This document shows, piece by piece, positions 4,859 through 41,854 of a DNA stretch of 42,850 bases. The position numbers were made by a program, and so were the translations under genes. The DNA is from Catajapyx aquilonaris (lineage: Eukaryota): positions 1-42,850 of the forward strand of contig KZ538885.1 in assembly GCA_000934665.2 (NCBI GenBank), read 5' to 3'. Numbering within the stretch: the first letter of the stretch is position 1; each line of letters opens with the position of its first letter. The notes beneath the pieces were generated by a model, which was given only the letters and a program-made list of their open reading frames with translations, searched no databases and had not been told where the DNA came from.

Positions 4859-7800
4859 GTGACCGCTTCCTCCTTGGTAATCTCCTAATTTGTTCCTTTG
4901 TCGTTACTGCTCGCACTTTCAACCAACTTTTTTTAAAAATCTCGTTCAGACGTGTTGGTTACCTTCAAATAATTTGAATAAGTACAGAGTCCAAAATGGT
5001 CCGAAATTTCGCAAGTGTTATGGCACCTAAATGTGAAGTAGCAGTTATTTTCAAACAAGGCTGTCAAATTAGTTGATAAGTCCAAATACTCTAATGATAA
5101 TAAATGAATTTACTTAATCTGCATATAAAAGGCAACGTTTGTCATATTTATGGATATGAAATGGGTATCAAATACAGCTTGTTTTTGTTTAATGGCAACA
5201 GGTTCCACTGCTATAGATGATTTTTTTTTCGAGCATAACCGAGTGCGCACACACACTCACGCAGTTCCATCGTTCTGACAACAACGTTGCCAGAATTACT
5301 AGATGTCCAAATAACTCATACCCGTAGCATCAGAGGCGCGTTCAAAGCCTTGGCAACGTCGCAAACGTCGGCCATTTTATTACCATTCAAGCATATAGCT
5401 TTGGAAATAAGTGGGCAGCATTATGCAGAGAGCTTACAAACTATCATTGGTAATGCCAACCGTGCACGCTGCGTGTGGTGCGCACTCGGTTACGTTCTTT
5501 CAAAAAAGTCATCTGAAGCGCCAATTTCTTTGCATGGTTATGACCCTATTCTTGCCCCTGTAGGGGACGACGGGTCGTCCAACCCGAAAAGCCTGGTGGT
5601 TCCTGCAGACGGACTCAACCTGTCCTCGACTGCTATTGGGTCCAACAGGAAGAGCAACATGGACTGCGCGGCTTATGTCCGTCAGCAGCTGAGTTCGGCC
5701 GAGGTGCTCCAAGGGGTGCCGCTCAACAACGAGTACGAGGTTCTAGCCTACACGCACTTCACCTTCAGGTAAGTCTGTTCACACTTGGGTCACATAGGGG
5801 CAGGAAGCAATCTTTCTCTTTCTTTCCAGCCGGATATATCCAGCCGATCTGGGTCTGGGTAAACGAGTGGTGGAGAAGCCAATAGGGTACAAGAGGAAGG
5901 ACCTCTTGGACGCCTTGGTTCGGGTCATGGAGACGTTGAACCGGGGTCGGACAGGACGCGACCGCTACACTGCGGACGACTTCGTTGAGGGCATCTACCG
6001 GATGGACCCCACCTCCGGAACCCAGTACGAAGTGTACTTCCGAGCCAAGAACCGGACCAGGGGCGGACCAGGGGCCAACTCCGGTGCCAACCTGACCCGG
6101 GTCAGCCTCCTGAGGCCGTTCGCTCCTGCCCAGGTAGTCAGTCAGGAGACTCTGGCCGCAAAGGAGCTGATACACGTCATCCTTCCGCTGTCAGGGAGAC
6201 TGGCAACCTTTCGAGGTTTCATGGACAAGTTCGCCAGAATCGCGATCAAACACGACCGACGCGTGTTTCTAACCGTGGTCTACTTCGGACAGGAAGGACT
6301 GGACGACGTTCGAGTTCAGTTGGCCCGAGTGGCCCGCGAGTCGCGCTTCAGGTCGCTCAAACTGCTGACCCTGAACGAGACCTTCTCCAGGAGCAAAGGT
6401 CTCAGAGTAGGAGCCGAGCAGTGGGAAGGAGACCAGGACGTGCTGCTGTTCATGTGCGATGTGGACGTTGTCTTCAGCGCGAGGTTTCTGGATCGGTGCA
6501 GGTGGAGCGCGGCTCCGGGAAGGAAGGTGTACTACCCGATCGTGTTCAGTCTCTACAACCCTCAAGTGGTGTACGCCCTGCAGGGGAAGGACACCCCTGC
6601 AGAGACGGACCAACTGGTCATCTCCAGGGACACTGGATTCTGGAGGGACTTTGGATACGGGATGACGTGCCAGTACAGGTAGGACCAGCAGAACTATTGT
6701 ACCCCGGACTCTTCACCAATTGGGACTACATTCGGCCAATCTCTTGCTTTAAAAAGAACAACAAGATTGGCAATCTCGCCTGATTCGAGTATACTTTTAG
6801 ACTTTTTCTCATAGAGAAAAGTTTTACGTAGCTGTCTGTAATAATGTATGTCCATCCGTCTGTCTGTGGACAGGTATCGGGGCCTAAACCGCAAGAGATA
6901 GGGACAAACGGGTTTTCAAAATGGATTTTATGGCCATCCTGTGACCGGCCACTTCCGGTTTTCCGGGTAAGCTTACACTGTACCCGCCAAGATCAAATCT
7001 GCAGGCAGGCAACAATATAAATAGGGTTCCTTGGCAGACTGACAACAATCAATGCCATTGTTGCCCAATTAGAATCGCGTCGTGTCGTATCGTATCGGGT
7101 TTGTCGGCCTCATTGCCCGCTGCCCAATGAGAAAAAAGTCTACTCGAATCACGCTCGCGTGATTAGCCAATCTCATGTTTCTCATTGCCAAGGAAATTCA
7201 AATTGCACAACGACATAGAATGTTGTCAGTATCATTTCTCGTGCCAATAAGGTACCCAATTTAAACGGTAACCTGCTTGTGGCGGATATAGTGAACCCGG
7301 AAAACCGGAAGTGCCCGGAAACCGGAAGCTGGCCATGAAACCTATTTTGGTCATTCTGAATCTGAATCCGAAAACCGTTTGTCGTTATCTCTTGCGGTTC
7401 AGGTCCTGATGCCTGTCCACGGACGGACGGACGGACGGACAAGCCATTTTATAATACGTTTTTGATGAGAAAAAGTGTAAGAATCGCAACTAAAAGTGAC
7501 ATTTCGATTAGAATGGCTGTAGATTTGTCGACAACAGAACTGTAGTAAATTTTTGGGAGCTGACATTCCGGCTCGAATATCTGCGGACACTTTCTCTTCC
7601 ATCCCAATCATTTGGTGAAGGGTCCGATAGTAGTATATATAGAGTCCGCTTCCCGCTCGCATGCTTCCCCACTAAATCTTGGTCTTGTTCATTGCCTTGC
7701 TTCGACATTGCTATCAGGGGAGGGGAAGCTTTGGATGTGTAGACAGCCCTTGTTCAATGCTGGTTTGGCTTCGGGAGGCGGTTACGTTGCTTTGGTACAC

Positions 7801-10684
7801 ACATTCCGCTGCTGTTCGAGCTATAAATTGTTCTCGCCGCGATCGCAGATGGATTTATAGGGGTCTTGGGAGGTTGCAAGGCCTTCCCCGGATAAGTTCG
7901 ACGCTCCGAGAAAACATTGCGTGACCCACACGATAGCTGTTCTGAATTAGCGCCAGACAAACCCTCCCAAGAAAAATTGGCATGGTTAAAAAAAAAAAAA
8001 GCGCCGGTGGATGTTGAGCTTCATTTTGCGAGAAAGGGCTAGGGGGTTTAGAAATTGAAATTAAATTTTAAAGCATCTGCTGAGGGTGAATTATTCGTGC
8101 GCGGAACCCTTTTCATGACTGCGCAGCTATTCACTGCTCCAGAGAGGCCGCCCTGGAAATTATCAACCGGCTTAAATTAATCACTGCTCCATATTGCCTG
8201 GGCCAAAAAGCTAGCTCCGCCGCATGAGGTCAAGGCGGTTTCAGCTGTAGTGTCCTTTTTAGTCAGGCAGTGCGAAACCTCGATTCATCGTTTTTGTCGG
8301 GACCCGGTCGGAAAAACGATGGATACGGGAAAACGATAAATATAGGATTGGTTCGTGTACCCTTGGAATTGAACGATGGATCCGGGATTGGCATATCCCG
8401 CTCGCGTGATTCGAGTAGACTTTCTTCTCATTGGGCAGTGGGAAATGAGACTGGACGATACGATACGACACGATGCTATTCTTACTGGACAACAATTACA
8501 TATAATGTTGCCAGTCTCATTTCCCGTTGCCAAAAAACCCCGAGAAACTTAATTTATACGTTGTAGACTTGACCTTGGCGGAGAGAGTGAACCCGGAAAA
8601 CCTGAATTTGACCATGAATCCGAATCCGAATCAGAAAACCGTGTGTAGCCTTCTCATGATGTATAGGCCCTGATACCTGTCCACGGACGGACGGACAGAC
8701 AACTTTTTTTCGAGGAGAAAAAGTCTGAAACGATACATCCGGAAACTACAGATCGAGGTTTCACGACATATTATTTTGCACTAAGCGGCTTATTATTAAG
8801 CAGTGGTTCAGGCCCCCCAACAGTGTCTGCTTAATAATATGCAATTATTCTCGAAATAATTGCTAATTGTAACACGCTGTGTATGCTCGCTGATGCATGC
8901 CGATGAGATCAGACCACCCCCTTTTTTTGATGTGCAGACACATCGTTATTGCCTAATCGTGCCTTGCTGTGTGACGATTCTCAGTGTTGGCGTGTGTGCA
9001 TGCTGATTGGAAGGGAAAAGCCGTGGGTTCATTATCAGGGCAGAGAGTAATTGTGAATCGGGCCATGTGGCTGGCCGAGCATGACTAGTTTTGCCTCATG
9101 TGTAATGGGCTCTCTCTTTTTTTTTGATTCGGTATTGGCCAAAAGGAGGCTAATTTTCGTACTTCTGTTGCGTATGTGACGGTTATCATGGGGCATGATT
9201 GGCAGGAGCGTGTTGCTCTCATCAAACATCCAGGGTTGATGACAGTTGGTGCCTCAATTTGGAGGCGGCGGTGCAAAAAGGATCCTTTCAAACGATATGT
9301 TTCGGAGTTGCTATTAGCAGGTTCAAATGTTAACAATCCGAATTGGTATCCAGGACAGTACATTGAATAACCTGAAAAAATTTAGCGTGACAGAATTTGC
9401 GAATCATTGTTTTTTTTCAAACGTTGTATTACAGCAAGGGACAGCAAGTCAGGCTAAAATTGTGCAAATATTGTTGCAATTTACCTGCTCCTGGCTGAGC
9501 GCAGTATGCTTCGGAAAATAATTACAGGAGCTGCATATTTCATATTTGTAGTGGAATACACAATGTTGGTTAATTATATTAATTATTAATTCATCCACCT
9601 TTTTATTTTATTTGCAGTTTTTAAATTGATGGTGCGTTTTCCACTGGAGAACGCGCCTTGCTTTTGGGCCACTAAATGTAGCGCAAATATGTTTTGCAAA
9701 ATTTCACAGCTCCTTACCAAAATGCCAAGCAGAAAAATATGCAATATGACAATTTTTTGTCCGAATTTTATACTTCAAAAAATTGACACGTAAACAACGG
9801 GCTGCAATGCGAATTTCCTTTTGCTCACATTCGGCACAAAATGTGAATATTTTGGGAGGTATATTGCTTCAAAGATAAGCTGAAATTTCGTGAAAATTTT
9901 TATTCTTATTTCTCATGAATGATAATTGGCATGACTTCCATGATAACTAAATTGCTTGAATATATATTTTATAGAAGATTTAATATTTTATTTTAATGTA
10001 TGAGTTGAGCTCAATGCTGATTCAATTTCAACTCCAATGCTGTCCTGTAATGGCATTAAATGTCTCGTATTTCTCCGAAAGCTTCACGTGGCTGAAATGC
10101 ATGAGCCACGTGCGCTATTGAGGTCATAAAACGCCGAAACCCCAGTCCGTGTCTTTCCATTCATAACGCCTCCATTCATGTCACCTCACGCCACGGTCGC
10201 AACACGACAAGGATTATTTTTTTGCCTGCTCATGCTTTTATTTCCTGCACGTGTGTTTTGTGTCACTCTGCTGCATGGATCGATTGTGTCATGAAATCTC
10301 TGGGACTAAACGAAACTCTCCTGGGTCTTGGGTGGGTGGGGGTTCTTTTTTGGCGTGTGTTTTGTGCGTGTTAGGTCGGACTTCCTCCAGATCCGTGGTT
10401 TCGAAGAGGACATTGTCGGCTGGGGCGGAGAGGACGTGATGCTCTACCGCAAGTACGTGAAGAGCTCGATGAAGGTGGTGCGGGCCACTGACCCAGGCAT
10501 CTTCCACATCTGGCATCCAAAGGTGTGCTCCCAGCATCTCTCAGCGGACCAATACAGGGCCTGTATTCGCTCCAGGGCTCTGAGCGAGGCCTCTCATGCA
10601 CAGCTTGGACTTCTGGCCTTCAAGGAGGAGCTGGACAGGCATTCCAGCAGGTTGTCCAGCTCGCCAAGAAAAGAAGGGACCTGA
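4721..10684 (+). CDS. CSGALNACT: Chondroitin sulfate N-acetylgalactosaminyltransferase, 5'-partial spliced CDS: join(4721..4858,5564..5768,5830..6678,10375..10684), ~499 aa visible
   Basis: Four exons with GT-AG boundaries join in frame (phases 1,1,2,2). The product has a coiled-coil stem ([25 protein letters not shown]), a DxD motif (FMCDVDV), and [18 protein letters not shown]...[13 protein letters not shown]...FHIWHPKVC...[12 protein letters not shown], which closely matches the CSGALNACT1/2 C-terminus as I recall it. The ATG/TM exon was not found in 1-4720. Confidence 0.93.
5211..5518. mobile_element. MITE in CSGALNACT intron; family members at 14428-14827 and partially ~18590-18630
   Basis: Imperfect TIRs ctatagatga...aaccgagtgcgcac / gtgcgcactcggtta...tcatctgaag; internal homology to the 14.4-14.8 kb copy. 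Confidence 0.7.
5564..5768 (+). CDS. CSGALNACT: CSGALNACT exon
   Basis: cccctgtag|gg ... ttcag|gtaagt; encodes [35 protein letters not shown]. Confidence 0.88.
5830..6678 (+). CDS. CSGALNACT: CSGALNACT large catalytic exon
   Basis: Follows a 61-bp intron; tttccag|c ... tacag|gtagga; overlaps ORF 5867..6682; contains CDVD and [14 protein letters not shown]. Confidence 0.95.
6795..8730. repeat. Three copies of a DINE/Helentron-like repeat with (CGGA)n in the last CSGALNACT intron: ~6795-7180 (-), ~7290-7490 (+), ~8385-8730 (+)
   Basis: Shared cctgtccacggacggacggac, aacccggaaaacc and gagaaaaagt blocks; 7060-7175 is inverted relative to 8385-8495. Confidence 0.7.
10375..10684 (+). CDS. CSGALNACT: CSGALNACT terminal exon
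   Basis: gtgttag|g; [21 protein letters not shown]...KEGT-stop; AATAAA candidates at 11269 and 11574. Confidence 0.95.
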
Positions 10685-28484: not shown

Positions 28485-29469
28485 GTCTCGTAGCGGGTAA
28501 GCACTTCAGTTTGTTGTGGACAGTTTACTCGTAACAAAATGCATTGGTGCTTGACAAGCGAGATGTGTAGCCTACAGATGGTAATGGTACACTGATATAT
28601 AGTCCAGAGTCCAAAGAGGGGAAGTATTTTAGATCGTTTACTCCGCAGCAATAATTTCAATCGGTGTGCTTTTTTTGTACACACATGAGAAAAAGGAGGG
28701 TGAAATGATGTTACAAGTCGTATGTCGGTTATACGAATCGTGAATTTATCTCGGACAGGTTAAGCTGGCCTTTGAAGTTGTATATGTCTGTTAGAACAGG
28801 AGGAAATGCGATGTACAGATTAGTGATGGACACAAGAAGGTTGCAGAATTTAAAGAAATTGAGCAAAGTGATGTCTTCTTTCGTGTGGTTTGACTCTCTG
28901 ACTAGACCCGATTCTATAGAACACCTTTCAAGCACATCAGATAGCAGATGAGGTGTTTTTAAATTTTCTACGCAATGCCAAAAATTTCACTTTTATGACG
29001 TTCAAAAGTGGTGGTTGACAAGAAAATGGGAATACATGACTGTGACAACACATTTGGCCTCCGGGTTTACAACTAAGTGTGTCGCATCTGAGCGCTTTCA
29101 TATCCCAACAAGGTCATGGTAATGTTAAAGAAGCAGTAAGGTTGCCCTCGTCATGTTGCGACACACAATATAATTATTTATTGGTATTATCAAGACAGAG
29201 TAAACCCCCCACCATACATACCATACATATACAGAGTCACTCTGTGCTTTATTATAAGAGATGACTCGATTGTAATGAGGTACTTTCTCTGCATCAACTC
29301 TTAAAGTAACAACCCAAGTTAAATATTTAGAATACTTTTATTAATGCCATTATTATAATTATTACATAAGAGTACCCACCACCATCCCATAATAACACCA
29401 CATAACCGTAATACACACAAAAACGACCTCAAGCAATGGTCACACTTTGAGCCATATACAGTAGGCTAT

Positions 29470-29513
29470 TTAAAATCCAATATCTGTGGCGTTGTGGTTC
29501 GAGCAAACATGCC
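29470..29513 (-). CDS. Cys-rich gene exon 10: C-terminal tail
   Basis: Long polypyrimidine tract then AAACAG|; GHVCSNHNATDIGF-TAA; AATAAA on the minus strand at 29337-29342. Confidence 0.7.
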
Positions 29514-32500
29514 CTGTTTAGATCAAGAAAAGAAATAAAGAAAGAAAGAAAAAATTCTAGATTCACACACTACGACTAACACCCCCACAACTGCCCCGTA
29601 CAATCACCACAAACTAACTCCAGTATACTTTCAAGCCTTTCATTTTCAGTGTCATCATCTCAGTCATCTTTTGTCATTGGCCAGTAATTATCGCTTTATT
29701 TTTAGCAACTCGATCCTGCGGCATACTACTACTCACCGTCCTCAGGCTGAGTGCAGAAATTTTCCACAACATAACTGGGAGGAGCAGGAGGACAGGTATA
29801 AGGGAGCAAGTTAAATATCTTAGTGAAGAAACTACTATCGTCATATTTGACAAGTCGCCCGCAGCACTTTGTATTATTTCCTTGGTTCGTGCAGTCCTCG
29901 TCAGTCGTGCAGGCTTCGCAGCTCTCGTCGATGGGTGTAAACGTGCAGGGGCATTGTGGCTCTGAAACAAAAGATTTGTGTGTGTTAGAAGTCAATATAG
30001 GACTCATTCACGATCCACCCATAGCGTATATAGGCTGTAATGGAAGAGGTATATATAGTAGAACACTCACCTGGTTCAGCGCACTCGCATGGCGCAGATC
30101 TTGATGGTCTGCAGCATGTGTGAGCTTCAGGGCAGGCGATGTCCTCCGTACACGCGCAGTCTGAGCAATGTGCGGATGAGTTCCTGCACACGCCATAGGG
30201 GTCTGAAACGAGTGCGACAAACACTCATATTGGAATGTATGGCATTGAAAGAAGCGTATCGTTATAGAGATGCCTTGGCTCACTTACCGCTACAGGAACA
30301 TGGAACGCGGAATTTCCTGCATGTGGTGCCGGGATACTGGGCGCACAAGTTAGTATTAGAGCAGTTGACAAGACTATAGATGAAATATCCCCCGTCATCG
30401 GTCTGGCATCTAGAATCACTTTCTCCGTCTCCATAGGGATGAAAATGAAATTATTATTGTGAAAATAATTGTCGCAATCACTGATAAGAAGTAACACTGA
30501 CTTGAGAGCAAAAGCAGCCTGGTAATATTGGAACTAATATTATGCTACGAGGTTATTGTTCAACTAATTTTCTGACTGTAACGGTGATAATTATATAAGA
30601 CAATAAATATCCAATGCAGGTCTCATATTGGCAATAATATTTCGTCTTCTTCCTGAAGCCCATTATTTCAGCAACGAGTATTTGGAGACAAAATGACAAA
30701 TCGACCATAAGTAATCACATGGAGTTCACTTTATAAAACATTCCTCCCGTTATTACGGAACAACATGTCCATAGTCATATCCGCATTGGTTTTGAAAGGT
30801 GGCAGCCAATTTGCCCCAGGATTATCAATTTATCATTCTGGTAGGGCTGTGTATATCACACAAGAAATTTTAGAAAAGGAGTTGTGTCTGAAATTACCTG
30901 CAAGCGGAGTCTGTTCCTGCTGTTCGATGCAACACTGGCTGTTAGGGTACTTACAATCTGCGTCAGCAGCGGTAACATTATTTTCCTGTGGTGCACGGCA
31001 GTAAGTATTCGGAATTACTTGACCAGTCCCCCTGTCCAAGCATGTACCAAACACACCTGAAAGAAAGGTATTATTAATACAGTGAGCCCCTCTTATTCAC
31101 GGTTTCAATTATCCGCGGTTTGAAAGTATTATGCCTTATAATATTACGTACTAAAAATATGCAATTTATAAAATGCAACAAGTGATTATAGTGCAGTGCC
31201 ATACAGTAATCTTATTACTATATTGAAAAATTGGGTTAGCATGCAAGGATCCTTTTTTATTCTTTGTGTGCTTTTAGTGTATAAAATTTTTAAACCCTAG
31301 GCATGGCCGGAATTCAGAACATTGTCACCAAGATTGTCACTTAAGCACAAACTCGACAAGTCATCTCATTCATGGGTTCGTCATATCCAGGGTGTTCCAA
31401 GCATGAAGGTCGCTGTAATTATGTAAAATTTTGCTGAGAGCTGTTAATTTTTGTATCTTGTTGCGCCCTGATCCAGGGAACCTATTACAGTAGGTATACT
31501 GGGCGAATTAATTGGGACAACGGAAGAACTTTTGTTTCATTTAGTTTGAACGATATTCGCGGATGAGGAGATGACGCCTTCCAAGTTGCTCAGGAATATT
31601 ACCTCGACCTTGCAAAACCGATATGTGGTACTGTACGTATAATTATGCAGTAGTTTCCTCTGATTGCTGGCAGATCAATGGCAGACACAGCTCAGTGTCA
31701 GTTACGAATGAGAATCTTCCTCACTTTGTCACGGCCTATAGATTATAATAATTATAGGTATGCTTACCTTCCGGAAACTCAGTTGAGCATTCCCGAATCC
31801 CATTGCAGCATTTCTGATTGGCGGCGGAGCAATTTGCATCAACATCGCATACTTGAGATGTGCATATTCCGGTTTGAGGACTTTTAGGAAGCGGATCACC
31901 TGCTGCCACAGTTGAGCACACTTTCTTTTCTGCAAGGGGACGAAGAAATAATAATGCATTGCGTTGCTGATGTAAAGCACGCATATACATCTACACAGCA
32001 TAGGCGCCTACATGGGCTCGCAAATATGTGCAATAAATGTGCATATTATTAACCTGTCAATCTGTGTCTGTAGCGTTTTCCCACCTTTATTTGACTTCTG
32101 AGAATGACAATTATTCGACCAGACTCATTTTATAGAGGTTGAAAATTGTGGGTTAGCGACTTACCGAAAATGAAATGTGGCCGGAACCACTTGGAAAGCC
32201 ATGCAGTCACCCGGATGATTATGCACCAATATTATTTTGCAGTTTGAGATATTATGATTTTTATAAGTATAAATCTCCGCACTGAGATAATGCCAGTATA
32301 AAATATACGATATAGATATAAGAGTTTGACATCTTTAAACAGTACATGTAGCAGAAGAACGCTCTGGTTTACTTACGTGTTGGTTTAATGTTGCAGTAGC
32401 ATGGAAAGCGTCCTTTGTGGCATGCAGTGTTCGGTGGGCAAGGAAATGAAGGATTGGCGCAGTTGTTGGTACCAATCAAAAAAAATCCGCCTTCCTTAGT

Positions 32501-35500
32501 CTGGCATGCCACTGATCCTGGAGTGCCGTCTTCAGTATGAAAAAGAAAGAAATATTGTGAAAATATTGTCGCAATCCGTGTTAAGAAGTGACCCTGACAG
32601 AGGGACTCTTACTGATGGGACTAAGTTACACGGTTGTTGATTGTTGTTCAGGCAATTTTCTGGCCAGTACCACTTCGCAGAAGCAAAATATCAAAATCAA
32701 ATTTTTACGCAAATATAAATAACTTTAAATAAATTGGTATCCAGGAAACCATCCTGGTTAGTGTATTTGGGAATCATTAATCATACTGAACAATCTCTCT
32801 ATAGTCAATTGGTTGTAGAAGGTGGCCACCAGGTTGAGATGGGATTTTCTGGGATCTGTCGAAAAGGATTTTGGGCACAAGAAGTTCTCTTATAGCACTT
32901 ACCTGCAGGTGCAGTCTGTTGCTGTTCAACAATGCAGCACTTGCTATTACTGAATTTATCCGAACATTGAGTATCAGGAGATTCATTATCCTTCACTGCA
33001 AAGCAGAGTGCAAAACCAAAAGCCAGGAACATTCCTGTGTCGCGATCGATGCATTGGCCGGTCGCATCTGAAAGAAACAAACATAATTATTTATGTTCAC
33101 ATTATTTACGGCATGCTTTCCAATGACGGAATTGCCTAACTCTCGAGATATTTTTAAAAACTGTCGTTTAAACGCGAAGCCCTTCTAATAAGGTGCTATA
33201 TACGTGATATTTAAGTTCCAAGCTTATGATTCGAAGGATTGTTAAGTAGGTGTTTCTCAAAATTATTCATACTCTGCATTTGATGGATTACTTGTAATAC
33301 GCTGTATAATAATTGTACAGGGTGATCCAAACACTTTTCCGAATAATTTGGTATTTGTTGGAACTAAACTTCTTATTTTATCAGTTGCTTCTGCATACTT
33401 TCAAGTTGCAACATTTGGTTATCACAACTTTCACAAGGCAGTAATAGTTGCTACAGTAATATCATATATGCCGAAATAACTCATCCCTGCGAGCTCTGAA
33501 CTGCAAAGTATTTTCGATTAGGAGTGGCACATTGGAGCAATTGGTATTTCATGTCAATGAAAGGCGTTAAAAAGCATGGGTGCACCTAACCTAATAGTAG
33601 CAGCTAATACTTTTAATAACCATCGTATGAATCAGTATAAATACTTTAGGAAGTAGAGCCAAAAGTATTCATAAATGAAAATATGTCTACTGCCACTAGT
33701 GAAATAAATAATTATTACACTTTAAAAACTTAAACAAAGTAGTCTCGCAAAGGTTTCAAGGTTTGTAACCGTTTGTACTGAACACACCTTATCAGTAGCA
33801 TGTCTGCGTATTATTTTGCAGTGCGTATTATGTCACCTTGACGTATGGGCAAACACAAGAGATCCTAGAATTAAACTTATTTAACTCCATGTTTACTAAA
33901 TTTTTAAGCATCTGCAAGATAACTTGCCCTAAAAAATGTTGCAAAAATAACCTACCACAACCCACTTGGGTAAAACTAGTGCCAAATTATTTTGCAATTA
34001 ATTTTGGTATCTGAGTTACCGGTATAAGATCACTAGACAAATATTATTGCTGAGAACAACAATTTGTGAGAGAATCTAATGTGAAAGACGTATAGAAATT
34101 CATGCTATACTGCACATGTATAAGCGGGTGTAAACTCTGACAGGAGACTCACTAACTTTATGTTGGGAGATATCGATTCCAAATAATTATTCATCTGCTG
34201 GGGAAAATCGTTGCTCAGGGATTGTTCAGAGTGCATAATATTATACTGCAACAGTCTTCTCAGATTCACAAACACAAGGAAAAAATTGCCAGCGCACACT
34301 ATTCAACAGAATTTGGGCCTGGTAAATAATAATTCATACTATAATAATTATACTCTGACGTGTTACCAGATTATCTGATGCCGAGTTAAGATTCTTCTTT
34401 CACTGTCTAATCGTCTATCATATTATCACGGCCGTGGTTACATGTGGACTATACTTACTTGCCGGAAACTTGGTTGCGCACTTTCCAACCACATCGCAGC
34501 ATTTCTGATTGGACCCGGTGCAATTTGCATCCTCTGTGCACACTGTAGTTCCGCATATCCCAGAAGTAGCAATAACGGGATTCACAACACTTGAGCAGAC
34601 TCTTTTTGCTGAAAGAGTACAAAGAAAGGAGACATTACGTTGAAGAGATGATTTTAAAATGCAAATATACCATCATACTTACGAAAGCATGGGTTAACAA
34701 AAATATTTGCTGTGAATTATTATAATATCTCTCTAGCAATTTCCTGCCTGCATTTCTGATATTAAACTTCTGAGACTGGTCTTTATTCAACCTGAACACA
34801 CGATATCAAGGTCAGAAATTTTGTGTTTACGAATAACTGGCAATATGACGGGGACGGTACCAATGGAAAATGCCAAATAGCGGAAAAATTGTATGTACAA
34901 GTACACACGATGTAGGTTATGGTTAACCGTTAACTATTGACAATGTTCTTTGCTGCACAATAAGTTTGAGAAGAAATAGGTACAGTACTACCCTTGACAG
35001 TACCTCCTCATAATATTAGAAGAGAAAATCATGTTTTTCTTCTGCATGTTTCCTACGTTGTCATTACCTGGGCTTTGAAATCTGGGACTCTTCTTATTTC
35101 TACTGAAATAGTGGTTACGATAACCGCTCTAAGAACCTTCCATGATTGTAATTTAATTTTAATGGCAATGGTAGGCGCTGCTCATTTCATACAGTCGTAT
35201 ATATTGTTCTCTAACCTGAATTTAATGATTCTGTATACTGTCTCTTGTAATACATTACAAAAATATTTGCCACTCTGGGAAACCAGGATTATGCAGTCAC
35301 CGGTTGCAGTGAAGGATTCACGCAAAATTTTACATAATTGAACATTGCCACGAATAGAATATTATGCAACGTTCCTAGCGCCTTTTGTGGCCAAAAAATG
35401 GGATATTTACGCTTCTCAATCCAAGAAAAAAAACCAATTTAGATATACTGTATTGTTTCTTCTCATATTATTACAGGTGTATTTGTGACATTGCAGGTAT

Positions 35501-35641
35501 ATTCTAACACAGCGGATACAGTAACAGTTTCGTTTGCTAATACTAGGTAGTGTAGGCCTACTTACACGGTTGTCCCGAAGCAGGAAGGACAGCAGTAGCA
35601 GCAAAGAGTGCTGCGATGATCACCAGGTAGTTCCTGTCCAT
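29470..35641 (-). CDS. Secreted cysteine-rich multi-WAP-like protein, 468 aa: complement(join 35566..35641, 34459..34608, 32903..33067, 32377..32529, 31768..31929, 30898..31056, 30288..30428, 30071..30202, 29737..29961, 29470..29513)
   Basis: Ten exons with GT donors and AG acceptors and all nine introns in phase 1. They sum to 1407 nt (469 codons) with no internal stop. N-terminal signal peptide MDRNYLVIIAALFAATAVLPASG; WAP-type C-x-x-D-x-x-C...KCC motifs; TATA box upstream and AATAAA ~130 nt after the stop. Confidence 0.85.
29737..29961 (-). CDS. Cys-rich gene exon 9: module E (WAP-like with long insert, 9 Cys)
   Basis: TTTCAG| ... G|GTGAGT; PQCPCTFTPIDESCEACTTDEDCTNQGNNTKCCGRLVKYDDSSFFTKIFNLLPYTCPPAPPSYVVENFCTQPED. 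Confidence 0.87.
30071..30202 (-). CDS. Cys-rich gene exon 8: module D (WAP-like, 9 Cys)
   Basis: TTTCAG| ... G|GTGAGT; PYGVCRNSSAHCSDCACTEDIACPEAHTCCRPSRSAPCECAEP. Confidence 0.88.
30288..30428 (-). CDS. Cys-rich gene exon 7: module C2 (6 Cys)
   Basis: GAG acceptor at the position homologous to exon 4's; G|GTAAGT donor; GESDSRCQTDDGGYFIYSLVNCSNTNLCAQYPGTTCRKFRVPCSCS. Confidence 0.75.
30898..31056 (-). CDS. Cys-rich gene exon 6: module B2 (5 Cys)
   Basis: TTTCAG| ... G|GTAATT; VFGTCLDRGTGQVIPNTYCRAPQENNVTAADADCKYPNSQCCIEQQEQTPLA; paralog of exon 3. Confidence 0.88.
31768..31929 (-). CDS. Cys-rich gene exon 5: module A2 (WAP-like, 7 Cys)
   Basis: TTGCAG| ... G|GTAAGC; KKVCSTVAAGDPLPKSPQTGICTSQVCDVDANCSAANQKCCNGIRECSTEFPE; paralog of exon 2. 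Confidence 0.88.
32377..32529 (-). CDS. Cys-rich gene exon 4: module C1 (6 Cys)
   Basis: Polypyrimidine tract then AAG acceptor; |GTAAGT donor; GTPGSVACQTKEGGFFLIGTNNCANPSFPCPPNTACHKGRFPCYCNIKPT. Confidence 0.8.
32903..33067 (-). CDS. Cys-rich gene exon 3: module B1 (5 Cys)
   Basis: TTTCAG| ... G|GTAAGT; ATGQCIDRDTGMFLAFGFALCFAVKDNESPDTQCSDKFSNSKCCIVEQQQTAPA. Confidence 0.88.
34459..34608 (-). CDS. Cys-rich gene exon 2: module A1 (WAP-like, 7 Cys)
   Basis: CTTTCAG| ... |GTAAGT; KRVCSSVVNPVIATSGICGTTVCTEDANCTGSNQKCCDVVGKCATKFPA. Confidence 0.88.
35566..35641 (-). CDS. Cys-rich gene exon 1: signal peptide
   Basis: ATG at 35641; MDRNYLVIIAALFAATAVLPASGQP then T|GTAAGT. Confidence 0.85.
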
Positions 35642-35910
35642 CTTTCTCTTGAACTGGACCTGTTCTTGAGCATGATCAGAGAAAGTGCTTTTAGTAAGGA
35701 GCTGCCTTCACAATCAAGCACATAATCTCCTTAGTTGGAGGATTCACAGTACATTCTAGCTATAGTGCAATACAATGAAATAAACGAAGCAACTTGTACT
35801 TACTACGAAGTTGGCCTTTCCCACAGGACTGCTCTTCAGTGGGTAATTCTCAGACGTTGTTTCCGAGAATGCCCAGGAGCTCTAGTGATCAGCAGGGACC
35901 CCCCCACTCA

Positions 35911-36038
35911 CTTTTATAGGCGCCCATGCGGCTCATCTGATATATTATCCACGAATTGGGCACGAGCCTCATTGATAGTCACCAATCAGATTATCAGAAT
36001 GGGGATTGATAGTCACCAATCAGATTATCAGAATGGGG
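35911..36038 (-). promoter_or_regulatory. Core promoter of the Cys-rich gene: TATA box plus exact 34-bp tandem duplication with GATA and CCAAT motifs
   Basis: TATAAAAG on the minus strand at 35911-35918; (attgatagtcaccaatcagattatcagaatgggg)x2 at 35971-36038; probable 5'UTR intron 35660-35803 (GTAAGT...CTAA...CAG). Confidence 0.65.
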
Positions 36039-36478
36039 ACTGATACTAACTCCCTCACTTGGAAAAGATTGGTACTGTTTTAAAAAACCATATGTTGGAG
36101 AATAATGGAAGGATTACACGTGGAGCTATTCATACGTAGATCAGCACAGGGCAATACGTCCAGTGCAGTACTGTATGAGTAATGTCCTTTACTTTGAAGT
36201 CAATCACTCATAACGTAAATGTAAATTAAAAACACCTTTACTGTCTGTAACACTCACACAGGCAGGTATTGTTAGTTTTGAATGTGTCTATAGTTTGATT
36301 ACATTTTGACAATGTAAAAACTGCCATAAAAATATATATACTGTATACCAGTACCGTATTCCTCTTTAAGACCTTCTTTCTGTGTCGTTTGATAATAGCT
36401 CTCCAGGGTTTTTGGGCTCTACTATAAGTCCCTTTCTATATTCAACTGATAATTTCAATATGATTGTATAGTCGCCTC

Positions 36479-38953
36479 TTCACGTATCGGCGGTTTTCTC
36501 CTAGACGCGAGGAAATTTTGGTCACTCACGCGACTAAACTAAAAATCACGCTTCTCTGTCAGAGCCAGATAGAAGCGATTTTTTGTCAGCCCAAGACCTC
36601 CCCCTGCCCACACGACCCCCGACCCCGTCCTACCTCCTACCTGCCCTGCAACTAACGAGTAAGTTTTATCGCATAGCGGATACGTGCAAATTTTCCAAAA
36701 ATTCGCTCGCTTCGTGACGTAAAAGACGCGAAAAAGCAAAACCTGAAAATCGCCCGCAGGTGTTTATTCGCGTATATGCTGTGAACGCACCAAGGTGTGA
36801 TTTGTCGTTCATCTGGTACGGCACGCTTAAGCTAGTTATGTCAATTTTGTCGCATTTGCTGCTTATTCTACACGTGTCTTACGAGAATGAAAGAAGTCAC
36901 ATTGACAATGAAGAAAGTAGAAAAAAGCTAGCTAGTTCATGTAACCAATGACAGTGAATTTATAATGCGCTTTTATCTTAGCTCATAAATTCTGCAAAAG
37001 GGTATTTTAAAAATAATGGCGTATCTACCATAAGGCAGGGACGTTCATTTAGTATGAAACATCTGCAGTGCATACCAGTAATGATATTCTTTAGTGAGGA
37101 ATTCCTTCACCTCATCCTCTGTTCATCTGTTCAGCCAAGGTCGCTTTATTCAAGTGCAAAATGCGGGGAAAATGATAATGAAGGTGGTACCCTGTACGAA
37201 CGAAGAATGTCGCAGCAAATTCAATGTCATTTATACTCATTATACATTGTGACTGTGTTTTTTGGGCATCACGGGGAGGATCAGCCAAATCCCCCTAGAT
37301 ATAGGTGTATGTGACAGTCTATACCCAACGCGGGCCTATACAGGGTGTTTCACTAGGTAGTCCCCCAAAGAATCGGCTATATTTTTATTACCGCACTCTA
37401 CCTAGAAACGTGATGTTTGGTTTAAAAGTTACCTTAGTATAATTGAAATGTAGCACCATTCACAATAAATTCTGACCTTCAACGACCTCCATACGCACTC
37501 GAACGCGACTCGCCACGACTCTCCTTATTATACAAGATCCTCCACACCAGCATGTACTCATTAAGAGTGTGGATTGGTGAACTTATGTTGTTCTCCAAGT
37601 CTCTAATGTCGAAGCTCACTAATGTAAGCACAACTCTTCAAGTATCCCCATTCGTGGCTCTTTTGACAGGTGTAAACAGTATACCCGGTTTTTTGTGACA
37701 AAATCGTGACGACTTTTTTTCGGTCATTCAAGCAGCCTGTACTTCCCTTTTTCGATTTTTTTTCTGTTTCCTTTAAAATTTAAATAGTATAAAGGAGGTC
37801 ATCTACCACAGTATATTGGTCCAAAATACTTGGAGCAACAATCTTGACTATTAAGTTTAATGTCGATATGCTGCGGAGAGCCTTCGATAATAAGGAGCAT
37901 CGGCGTCGAGTCGCGTTCGAGAGCGTATGGAGGTCGTTGAAGGCCAATTACAGATTTTATTGCGAATGGTGTTACATTTCCATGATCTAAGGTAAGTTTT
38001 AAAGGAAAAAATAGTGTTTCTATAGGTAGAGTAGAAAGAAAAATCTAATCGATTCTTTGGAGGGACTACCTAGTGAAACACCCTGTATAGGCCCGCGTTG
38101 GGTATAGATTGTCACATACACCTATATCTAGGGGGATTTGGCTGATCCTCCCCGTGATGCCCAAAAGACACAGTCACAATGTATAATAATCAGTAAATGG
38201 CATTGAATTTGCTGCGACATTCTTCGTTCGTACAGGATACCACCTTCATTATCATTTTCCCCTCATTTTGCACTTGAATAAAGCGACCTTGGCTGAACAG
38301 ATGAACAGAGGATGAGGTGAAGGAATTCCTCACTAAAGAATATCATTACTGGTATGCACTGCAGATGTTTCATACTAAATGAACGTCCCTGCCTTATGGT
38401 AGATACGCCATTATTTTTAAAATACCCTTTTGCAGAATTTATGAGCTAAGATAAAAGCGCATTATAAATTCACTGTCATTGGTTACATGAACTAGCTAGC
38501 TTTTTTCTACTTTCTTCATTGTCAATGTGACTTCTTTCATTCTCGTAAGACACGTTTAGAATAAGCAGCAAATGCGACAAAATTGACATAACTAGCTTAA
38601 GCGTGCCGTACCAGATGAACGACAAATCACACCTTAAGGTGCGTTCACAGCAGATACGCGAATAAACACCTGCGGGCGATTTTCAGGTTTTGCTTTTTCG
38701 CGTCTTTTACGTCACGAAGCGAGCGAATTTTTGGAAAATTTTCACCTATCCGCTAAGCGATAAAACTTACTCGTTAGTTGCAGGGCAGGTATAGGAGGTA
38801 GGACGGGGTCGGGGGTCGTGTGGGCAGGGGGAGGTCTTGGGCTGAAAAAAAAATCGCTTCTATCTGGCTCTGATAGAGGAGCGCGATTTTTAGTTAAGTC
38901 GCGTGAGTGACCAAAATTTCCTCGAGTCTAGGAGAAAATCGCCGATACGTGAA
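36479..38953. repeat. Large palindrome: ~860-bp near-identical inverted arms (36479-37340 / 38086-38953) around a central MITE
   Basis: ttcacgtatcggcg... at 36479 is the reverse complement of ...cgccgatacgtgaa ending at 38953; the match continues with few differences to the centre. Confidence 0.95.
37341..38085. mobile_element. Tc1/mariner-type MITE, TA-flanked, long degenerate TIRs
   Basis: ta|cagggtgtttcactaggtagtccc ... gggactacctagtgaaacaccctg|ta; imperfect inverted homology continues ~200 bp inward; no ORF. Confidence 0.75.
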
Positions 38954-40573: not shown

Positions 40574-41854
40574 GCACTACACAACACCAGCCAGCAGCCA
40601 ACGCTTTTGTGTAATAGATAATAATGATGCAAATAGGCTGAGAACCATTTACCTGCCTCCTAATCCAACCCTACATCCACACTCTTCCTAGCTACAGTAG
40701 GCCCTACTTCCTTTTTCCTCCAGGTGACGATGTGTGCTGCCTGATAACGCAATGTGCTCCTATGGCTGAGGTGACCATTCCAGTGAGTTATATTTTTTGC
40801 AGTAATCTTCTGTGTGAATCCCCGTCGATTACCACTCATCTGCTCGAGGAATATGCAACAGTATTTCATTGACCTCCCTGTATATATTGCTAGTTCTGTA
40901 CACAGCACAGTTAGGCTTAGGGCACTAATTATGATGATAGCCTACAGTATTCAAAAATCATAACTGGAGATGTAGGCGTTGCAGTAGAACTTCATGTTGG
41001 AATTGTTAAAAGTCATTTATTGCCTTTTCTATTTCAGTGCCGATGCCGCTATATTGCACGCGTGCGACGTAGGTATACATTGAGAGTTCTGCCAGCTTAA
41101 TCCGTGATTTCTGACACGAGACCACAAGTAGTGATCAGGAATCCTCATTAGCAATGCTGTTCTTAGAAACAAGAAGGAGACACCTACAGTGTGTCCTCCA
41201 TAGCCTACCGTGTAAATGGCTCCTTTGTAATAAGTTTTAACCTCCTGAGACCCCTGGTACAGTATACTGTACCTTTGTTTTTGTTTTTTATGCGCTTGAG
41301 TTAGTCAGAAGGTACTGGAAACAACAAAGGTACAGTATACTGTACCAGGGGTCTCAGGAGGTTAAGACAAAAAAACACAATATTATAGAGTAATCGGCAC
41401 ACAAAACCAGTCTTTACACACAAATTCCAACATTACTGAAACATAAATTGATTAGTCCTGAAAATACTAAGCATGTGGTGAATAATGTTACAGTGTTTAA
41501 GTTGCAATGTATTCAGCACTGACGTTAAAATCCTTCCATTGTTAGCAATATGGTTGATTGTTGTGACATCAGTACTCGTCCGACACTGAATGCATTATTA
41601 TAGCCTATTGTAGCAGCAATGAATTCCATTCGTGCAATACGTACTGTATAAAATTATGATCCGTTGCCACGGTGTACAGTGCGTGCATGAGGTGGGATTG
41701 GTTTGCAGCACCTTGCATCCTTGCAAGCATCCTTGCAAGCACGACAAGGACTGCAAAGGCCATGGCGGCAAAGGCCAAGGGGGAAAATATCTGTGAGCTG
41801 CGAACGGCCTCTGTCCGGGCTTCTTCTTCCGGTTTGTGCAGTGGCGCCACGCAG
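40574..41854 (+). repeat. Segmental direct repeat, copy 2, with ~460-bp insertion (41099-41560) and an inverted ~47-bp terminal block
   Basis: Collinear with 27772-28418; 41808-41854 is the reverse complement of ~28437-28483. Confidence 0.9.
41241..41361. mobile_element. piggyBac-type MITE (121 bp)
   Basis: TTAA on both sides; perfect 39-bp TIR cctcctgagacccctggtacagtatactgtacctttgtt. Confidence 0.85.

Follow-up and report, generated by a model that had tools for sequence, protein, structure and literature searches.

What does a run of short, cysteine-rich exons on the minus strand of Catajapyx aquilonaris contig KZ538885.1 (assembly GCA_000934665.2) encode, and how are its modules related to the domain called WAP, or four-disulfide core? 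The window, which is the whole stretch of DNA analysed (42,850 nucleotides), is one entire contig (C1747) from a genome of 285.6 Mb that is assembled into 20,583 contigs. A preliminary description had placed in it a ten-exon gene for a secreted protein of 468 amino acids (aa) with 55 cysteines. The locus is very probably a real gene for a secreted cysteine-rich protein. It would comprise nine coding exons and specify a secreted, N-glycosylated, acidic 456-aa chain with at most 27 disulfides, in which a signal peptide is followed by modules A1-B1-C1-A2-B2-C2-D-E. Modules A, B, D, and E appear to be WAP-derived beads with trimmed or extended cysteine sets, and the protein seems to represent an undescribed WAP-derived family with a fixed three-bead repeat.

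Gene model and encoded protein

The ten-exon splice can be rebuilt in frame to 468 aa, 55 cysteines, and nine N-x-S/T sequons. Its exons contain 0, 7, 5, 6, 7, 5, 6, 9, 9, and 1 cysteines, and all nine introns are GT-AG and in phase 1. The GC content is 0.45-0.59 in the exons against 0.35-0.42 in the introns. The scanner with which exons had been recovered in the paralogs gave a single candidate in the rest of the window (34.9 kb, both strands), and every module is found again in paralogs with order and phase unchanged. The run of modules is therefore not a product of chance. A search of sequencing runs listed none of RNA with the sequence. In one run of unspecified kind (X1), 0.22 of the sampled words occur, close to the exon share of the stretch (about 0.19-0.23 by a hand estimate), which serves as a lead only.

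All modules lie on the minus strand. The signal-peptide exon (35566..35664, coding from the ATG at 35641, with an acceptor at 35664 or 35659) has a hydropathy peak at residues 4-18, probable cleavage after residue 23, and 88% identity to its counterpart in paralog C9871. Module A1 (34459..34608) has seven cysteines and is WAP-like (Pfam WAP E 0.002, 18.8 bits). Module B1 (32903..33067) has five cysteines and a reduced WAP-like core with a lengthened loop. Module C1 (32377..32529) has six, and an alternative in-frame acceptor at 32517 would shorten it by four aa. Modules A2 (31768..31929), B2 (30898..31056), and C2 (30288..30428) have seven, five, and six cysteines; A2 is 49% identical to A1, and DNA self-matches support an internal A-B-C duplication. 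Module D (30071..30202) is WAP-like, has nine cysteines including one extra, and is the most conserved of all. Module E (29729..29961; in the ten-exon model 29961-29737) is WAP-like, has nine cysteines and a 34-residue, partly hydrophobic insert, and is the probable last coding exon. The module counts of the preliminary description, and its statement that no module has eight cysteines, were reproduced by computation.

The tenth exon (29470..29513, minus strand; 14 aa, one cysteine) is the part of the earlier model that does not hold well. The frame of module E reads on to a TAG at 29731-29729, which gives 456 aa, 54 cysteines, and eight sequons. In all five close paralogs E is likewise the last coding exon, with the stop 2-5 residues past the final FCT/YCT. 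The donor of the tail exon lies inside a 19-nt stretch that is missing from the nearest paralog, which also lacks the acceptor AG and has additional sequence within the "tail". At 3.1 bits the acceptor ranks below each of the 35 family acceptors (scored in-sample and so somewhat inflated), and 27 decoys in introns 1-8 reach its score. The exon is doubtful because the paralogs stop in E, the nearest paralog lacks its splice sites, and the acceptor is weak. True splicing of the exon through a newly gained intron, as the main or an alternative form, would yield 468 aa and a free 55th cysteine for dimerisation, and is considered a lesser likelihood. The phase-1 donor is good (9.9 bits, mid-range among 32 family donors), and it is equalled by no decoy in introns 1-8 and by three in 28.5 kb. 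A long pyrimidine tract lies close to the acceptor, and the 14 codons are open; over nine alignable codons, two of the four base changes relative to paralog C2308 would be silent. Against this stands, besides the points above, the odd cysteine total, since the totals are even in all four complete family models computed (54, 36, 36, and 34).

The nine-exon model with 456 aa, 54 cysteines, and eight sequons is thus probably the correct one, and the 456-aa form is likely to be the main product. The tail exon would amount to no more than a splice form that is alternative or confined to this gene, and its region probably belongs to the 3' untranslated region (UTR). Three paralogs share with this gene a block whose closing AATAAA lies 320-395 nt beyond the stop, and the probable 3'UTR (29337..29728, minus strand) ends at the AATAAA of 29342-29337. 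The conservation of "intron 9" in C2308 was dropped as an argument that would by itself show a UTR, because patchy matches are also seen in true introns and flanks. The overall anatomy of the gene and protein, with splicing and secretion predicted, is put forward with good confidence. In summary, exons 1-9 and their predicted junctions are retained from the preliminary description, while the tenth exon, the length of 468 aa, the 55th cysteine, and the ninth sequon are probably to be given up.

Relationship of the modules to WAP domains

The window gene has seven cysteines in A, five in B, six in C, and nine in D and E, and so, as a rule, do the paralogs. No module of the window gene has the eight cysteines of a WAP domain, and D and E could be eight plus one. 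Pfam WAP matches at E<=0.1 occur in 7 of 12 A, 2 of 10 B, 0 of 13 C, 2 of 6 D, and 0 of 6 E modules. WAP is the sole Pfam family matched by more than one member in any module alignment. With hhalign, a profile built from 21 canonical WAPs of the same genome is matched at 87% by A, 72% by D, 44% by E, 11% by B, and 0.4% by C. The matches of A, B, D, and E exceed all 40 shuffles of the non-cysteine columns with the cysteine columns kept, in a control that covers WAP only and not the knottin, granulin, or colipase families. For module C, 14 of 40 shuffles reach its score. The C-x5-C-x5-CC core, with WAP-like non-cysteine residues, is present in A, B, D, and E and is lengthened in B1 and B2. Module B aligns with A at 75%, and over its length there is a weak alignment with C (25%, 35 columns). 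Module C may therefore be a further-derived bead, as this weak B-C alignment suggests. The earlier statement that B and C match no recognised family survives for C, but B has the WAP-like core of A, D, and E.

The structure model of E, with a predicted local distance difference test score (pLDDT) of 65, has omwaprin as its top match among 48,161 chains (Z 2.5, root mean square deviation (rmsd) 2.8, 39 aligned), and the match is weak. The model of module C2 (pLDDT 71) gives nothing at Z>=2 in the VIA fold search, which is not proof of a new fold. Foldseek returns nothing at E<=0.001 for the E and C models, and PDB sequence searches with five profiles reach a best E of 0.029.

Several points weigh against a WAP origin. 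The Pfam gathering cut-off of 20.8 bits is missed by all modules, the best being A1 with 18.8, so that WAP (PF00095) is matched repeatedly but always below threshold. In the fold search of E, a knottin-like peptide of tomato (Z 2.3, rmsd 2.6, 39 aligned) ties with omwaprin. Weak sequence matches, at E 0.03-0.9 overall, include granulin, Bv8, and carboxypeptidase inhibitor; those to granulin and carboxypeptidase inhibitor are at E 0.03-0.4, so that the bead topology is not fixed. The modules could then be knottin-, granulin-, or colipase-like beads that reached a generic C-x5-C-x5-CC pattern by convergence, and the missing WAP signal of C would fit such an origin. This is judged possible though distinctly the less probable, in view of the repeated WAP matches of A, B, and D and of paired cysteine changes in E that suit WAP connectivity. 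Module B also matched ricin-B at E 0.22 without any significant stretch, which was taken as chance. The genome also contains 76 canonical WAP matches above the Pfam cut-off (L038-L066), many in multi-WAP arrays. Among the canonical WAPs extracted, the second and third cysteines are separated by three residues in 14 of 21 and by eight in none.

Homologs of C, D, and E outside the genome were not found, and the word-index searches with these 43-76-aa queries are weak. Module E gave one candidate among proteins of 131-2000 aa and none at E<=1, and an alignment search with D gave 198 candidates, none at E<=0.01. A profile of C searched against 1.84 billion representatives had one match (E 3.6e-4, 15 columns), a cysteine-poor, glutamine-rich repeat protein, which was rejected. 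The ESM Atlas contained nothing usable for B2 or E. No description of the A-B-C/D-E architecture was found in literature listings, with subscription papers and supplements outside their scope. The earlier characterisation of the protein as secreted, WAP-like, and lineage-restricted is supported. Its novelty also stands in that no characterised family with this architecture was found within that scope; what is new is that the gene is one of 9-11 paralogs.

Disulfide logic

The disulfides of a WAP domain join Cys1-Cys6, Cys2-Cys7, Cys3-Cys5, and Cys4-Cys8. Module E looks like a full WAP with an extra N-terminal cysteine and an insert of 34-50 residues across the family. Its equivalents of Cys2 and Cys7 are both lost in C2308 and both shifted in the window gene, so that they change together, as a bonded pair would. 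Module A lacks Cys7, which would leave Cys2 spare, and Cys2 is the sole variable cysteine of A in the alignment. Module B lacks Cys2, Cys7, and Cys8, which would leave Cys4 spare. Module D has one extra cysteine. An even cysteine total is found in 15 of the 16 intact A-B-C units, and because the triplet also recurs alone, a bond between A and B is the simplest closure. The odd counts thus favour inter-module bonds within A-B and within D-E, with every pairing deduced from the sequence. Each A-B-C repeat (18 cysteines, about 150 aa) would then be closed by the spare cysteine of A bonded to that of B.

Inter-module bonds had been proposed from the odd counts alone, and the even units support them. 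The pairing A-B plus D-E does not suit every paralog. In C6040 (6/5/6/8/9) the spare cysteines of A and D are lost, which agrees better with A-D and B-E bonds and weighs against the scheme above. A predicted complex of A1 and B1 has a score of 0.02 (alignments not used, partner fold uncertain) and counts neither for nor against such a bond. Alternatively, the last cysteine of A may belong to the B domain.

The paralog family

Single-module genome searches and fetched contigs give a family of 9-11 unannotated genes on eight contigs, the searches being lower bounds on family size. The A-B-C unit is repeated 1-6 times per gene and is usually capped by D-E. The basic plan, signal-A-B-C-D-E, is seen in C6040, C3040 gene 2, and C9871+C7444, whose contig ends overlap with 97% identity over 196 nt. 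In the window gene A-B-C is doubled. The C2830 gene has A-B-C-D followed by two further A-B-C units, and C2816+C7444 has six A-B-C units, a threonine-rich spacer, and an E-like end. Cysteine counts are 7/5/6 in 14 of the 16 intact units, 7/7/8 in one, and 6/5/6 in one, where two units with a frame break in B are left out of the count. The chain would have been built by duplication of phase-1 exons for WAP-derived beads.

Module trees are mostly without resolution. The B and C copies of the window gene group with C9871/C7444 (90/95 and 93/99), and A1 groups with A2 (89/90). Four weak genome matches (C3155, C12368, C5082, and C1889) were rejected as family loci, as they contain no family exons. 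A join of C2830 and C2308 is not supported beyond a 44-nt match.

Individual copies differ in several ways. C3040 genes 1 and 4 (L031 9239-9404; L033 5684-5856) have a frame break in B and are pseudogenes, skipped exons, or assembly errors. C3040 gene 3 (L033 1451-2876, plus strand) has two more cysteines in each of B and C (7/7/8), with no D or E nearby. C6040 (L036 9437-7473, minus strand) looks intact, has lost the spare cysteines of both A and D, and has aromatic FSYG-type repeats in its E insert. In C2816 (L096 2800-2276, minus strand) B and C are in one exon, the intron apparently having been lost; the next intron is open in frame, and B-C-A can be read as one natural frame.

Promoter and selection

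The probable non-coding first exon, the conserved promoter, and the paralog family had all escaped the preliminary description. The first exon (35804..35886, minus strand) ends at a donor GTAAGT at 35803. A donor-like site occurs at the matching place in all six aligned family genes and is followed by a 5'UTR intron of about 140 nt. The predicted proximal promoter and transcript start (35842..35989, minus strand) are conserved in six family genes, with 69-83% identity to the five paralogs; they include what we take to be a TATA box at 35918-35911 and an Inr-like (initiator) site near 35886. The six genes have in common the upstream block, the TATA box, the probable non-coding first exon, and the short 5'UTR intron, which suggests shared regulation. 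Only the window gene has a 34-bp tandem duplication (2.2 copies, 35971..36045) in the upstream conserved block. The duplication displaces a motif, presumably octamer-like, that is kept in the five paralog promoters, and it adds GATA-like sites. The window copy may be regulated differently from its paralogs.

Selection differs along the chain. The proportion of nonsynonymous differences (pN) is lower than that of synonymous differences (pS) in D/E in four of four pairs at p<0.05 (single-test p, here and below). In A/B/C this is the case in two of nine pairs, both at near-saturated pS, while pN exceeds pS in four of nine, none significantly. D/E is under purifying selection, and A/B/C changes approximately neutrally despite its fixed cysteines. 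In two family copies the frame of B is broken, as would be expected where the genes of a family turn over.

Proposed function

The protein of the window gene is acidic (isoelectric point (pI) 4.7; 32 K+R against 49 D+E). The preferred reading, put forward tentatively, is a protease-resistant secreted scaffold with a barrier or defence role at a body, gut, or gland surface. D-E (18 cysteines) would close the C-terminus as a conserved cap, and its hydrophobic insert probably serves to anchor the chain or to oligomerise it. The cap would hold the protein in place, while the fast-changing loops of A-B-C would bind changing partners such as microbial surfaces or foreign proteases, without a reactive loop of the elafin type. 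The trappins offer a precedent for duplicated, fast-evolving WAP defence genes (PMC2831891). Against such a scaffold, the pI is 4.6-4.9 in three family genes and 7.8 in one, and for the arms relaxed constraint fits as well as an arms race because no pair has significant pN>pS.

A structural or reproductive secretion, such as an egg coat, spermatophore, cement, silk, or cuticle matrix, ranks just behind the defence and barrier scaffold and is nearly as likely. It would be a beaded, glycosylated chain with its length set by repeat number and its assembly by D-E. The repeat number of 1-6, the threonine-rich spacer in one paralog, the acidic protein with its eight sequons, and the near-neutral loops all fit such a role. 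The E insert is rich in Phe, Tyr, Gly, and Ser and is repetitive in some paralogs, with up to 14 aromatics of 47 residues. Mollusc shell matrix has multi-WAP proteins (PMC3374290), and one crustin binds chitin (PMC12175665). Against it, Pfam searches of the modules found no chitin-binding or other matrix domain, and the family consists of many divergent paralogs, not one long homogenised repeat.

More speculative is the view that A-B-C is an undescribed super-domain of 18 cysteines and nine disulfides. Three stripped WAP-derived beads would complete each other's missing bonds in it. The super-domain would serve as a binding arm, variable in copy number and in its loops, attached to a conserved D-E anchor, and the family would be a germline-encoded recognition library of one thinly sampled arthropod lineage.

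A role as a multi-domain, disulfide-rich component of venom or saliva that is passed to prey or a host is unlikely. The protein is secreted, disulfide-rich, and tandemly duplicated, six genes have a common promoter, and the nearest fold match, although weak, is a snake-venom waprin; but no dibasic processing pattern is evident between the modules in the translation, and toxin-family matches do not exceed chance (E 0.094 in 1 of 13 C modules).

In elafin and SLPI the inhibitory loop has six and eight residues in the Cys1-Cys2 and Cys2-Cys3 gaps (PMC11408880), and WAP inhibitors usually have a methionine by the scissile bond after Cys2 (PMC9680087). A canonical multi-headed serine-protease inhibitor or cationic antimicrobial of the elafin, SLPI, or crustin type is the least likely function, despite the WAP-like core of A, B, D, and E and the canonical WAPs elsewhere in the genome, because no module has the 6/8 spacing (among the A, D, and E modules in which Cys2 is retained, Cys2-Cys3 is 2-6 in 22 of 22, and the elafin-type eight is absent), the sole methionine of the mature chain is in B1 with none just after Cys2 in the aligned A, D, and E rows, and the net charge is negative.

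Flanking features

The neighbouring gene (5798-10684, plus strand) encodes a chondroitin sulfate N-acetylgalactosaminyltransferase (Pfam CHGN E 1.4e-52). Its best named matches come from insects, spiders, horseshoe crabs, and crustaceans, with identities of 57-66%, and its best match overall is at 67%. The animal is therefore an arthropod to which nothing in the protein database is closely related. A fold-back element of about 2.5 kb (36479-38953), with nested arms 94-99% complementary over about 890 bp, is located about 0.5 kb upstream of the promoter and is probably a young non-autonomous transposon. A short cysteine-rich frame at 41657-41794 (minus strand) has seven cysteines, a 12-bp repeat, an AG before it, and a stop after it; it had no match in a Pfam search and may be due to chance.

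Comparison with known systems

Lineage-specific secreted cysteine-rich families are common in animals. If the proposed pairings are true, a small disulfide domain would here have been rebuilt by exon shuffling, with single cysteines dropped from WAP beads and their freed partners tying adjacent beads together as a larger repeat. A natural test series for such rebuilding is offered by the family, with its 1-6 repeats and its paralogs in which cysteine pairs are lost or shifted.

Elafin, SLPI, and the trappins (PMC11408880, PMC2831891) resemble the family in having a WAP scaffold and a duplicated, fast-evolving gene family. In contrast, the 6/8 cysteine spacing and the methionine contact loop are absent here, and pN does not significantly exceed pS.

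Crustins and the single- and double-WAP proteins of arthropods (PMC9680087) are also secreted, cysteine-rich, WAP-related, and multigene. Crustins of types I, II, and V have a 12-cysteine signature in that source, composed of a four-cysteine region and one complete C-terminal WAP. The present family has neither this signature nor a single complete C-terminal WAP, and its protein is much larger, acidic, and predicted to be glycosylated.

Mollusc perlwapin and the Lottia shell proteins (PMC3374290) likewise string WAP beads, a partial WAP domain among them, into long secreted arrays, outside an immune setting. They differ in that most of their WAPs are complete and mixed with antistasin domains, and no sequence relation to them was found.

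The nearest known domain is WAP/4DSC itself (PF00095; omwaprin, PDB 3NGG). The modules have in common with it the C-x5-C-x5..8-CC core, the Asp before the second cysteine, the form of secreted 40-50-aa beads, the sub-threshold Pfam and profile matches, and a weak fold match of E that is tied with a knottin-like peptide. They are not filed as members of the WAP family because none in the window gene has exactly eight cysteines and none reaches the Pfam cut-off. They are set apart from it by five, six, seven, or nine cysteines per bead, a replaced C-x3-C-x3-C tail, odd counts that imply inter-module bonds, a 34-50-residue insert in E, and the fixed A-B-C triplet repeat.

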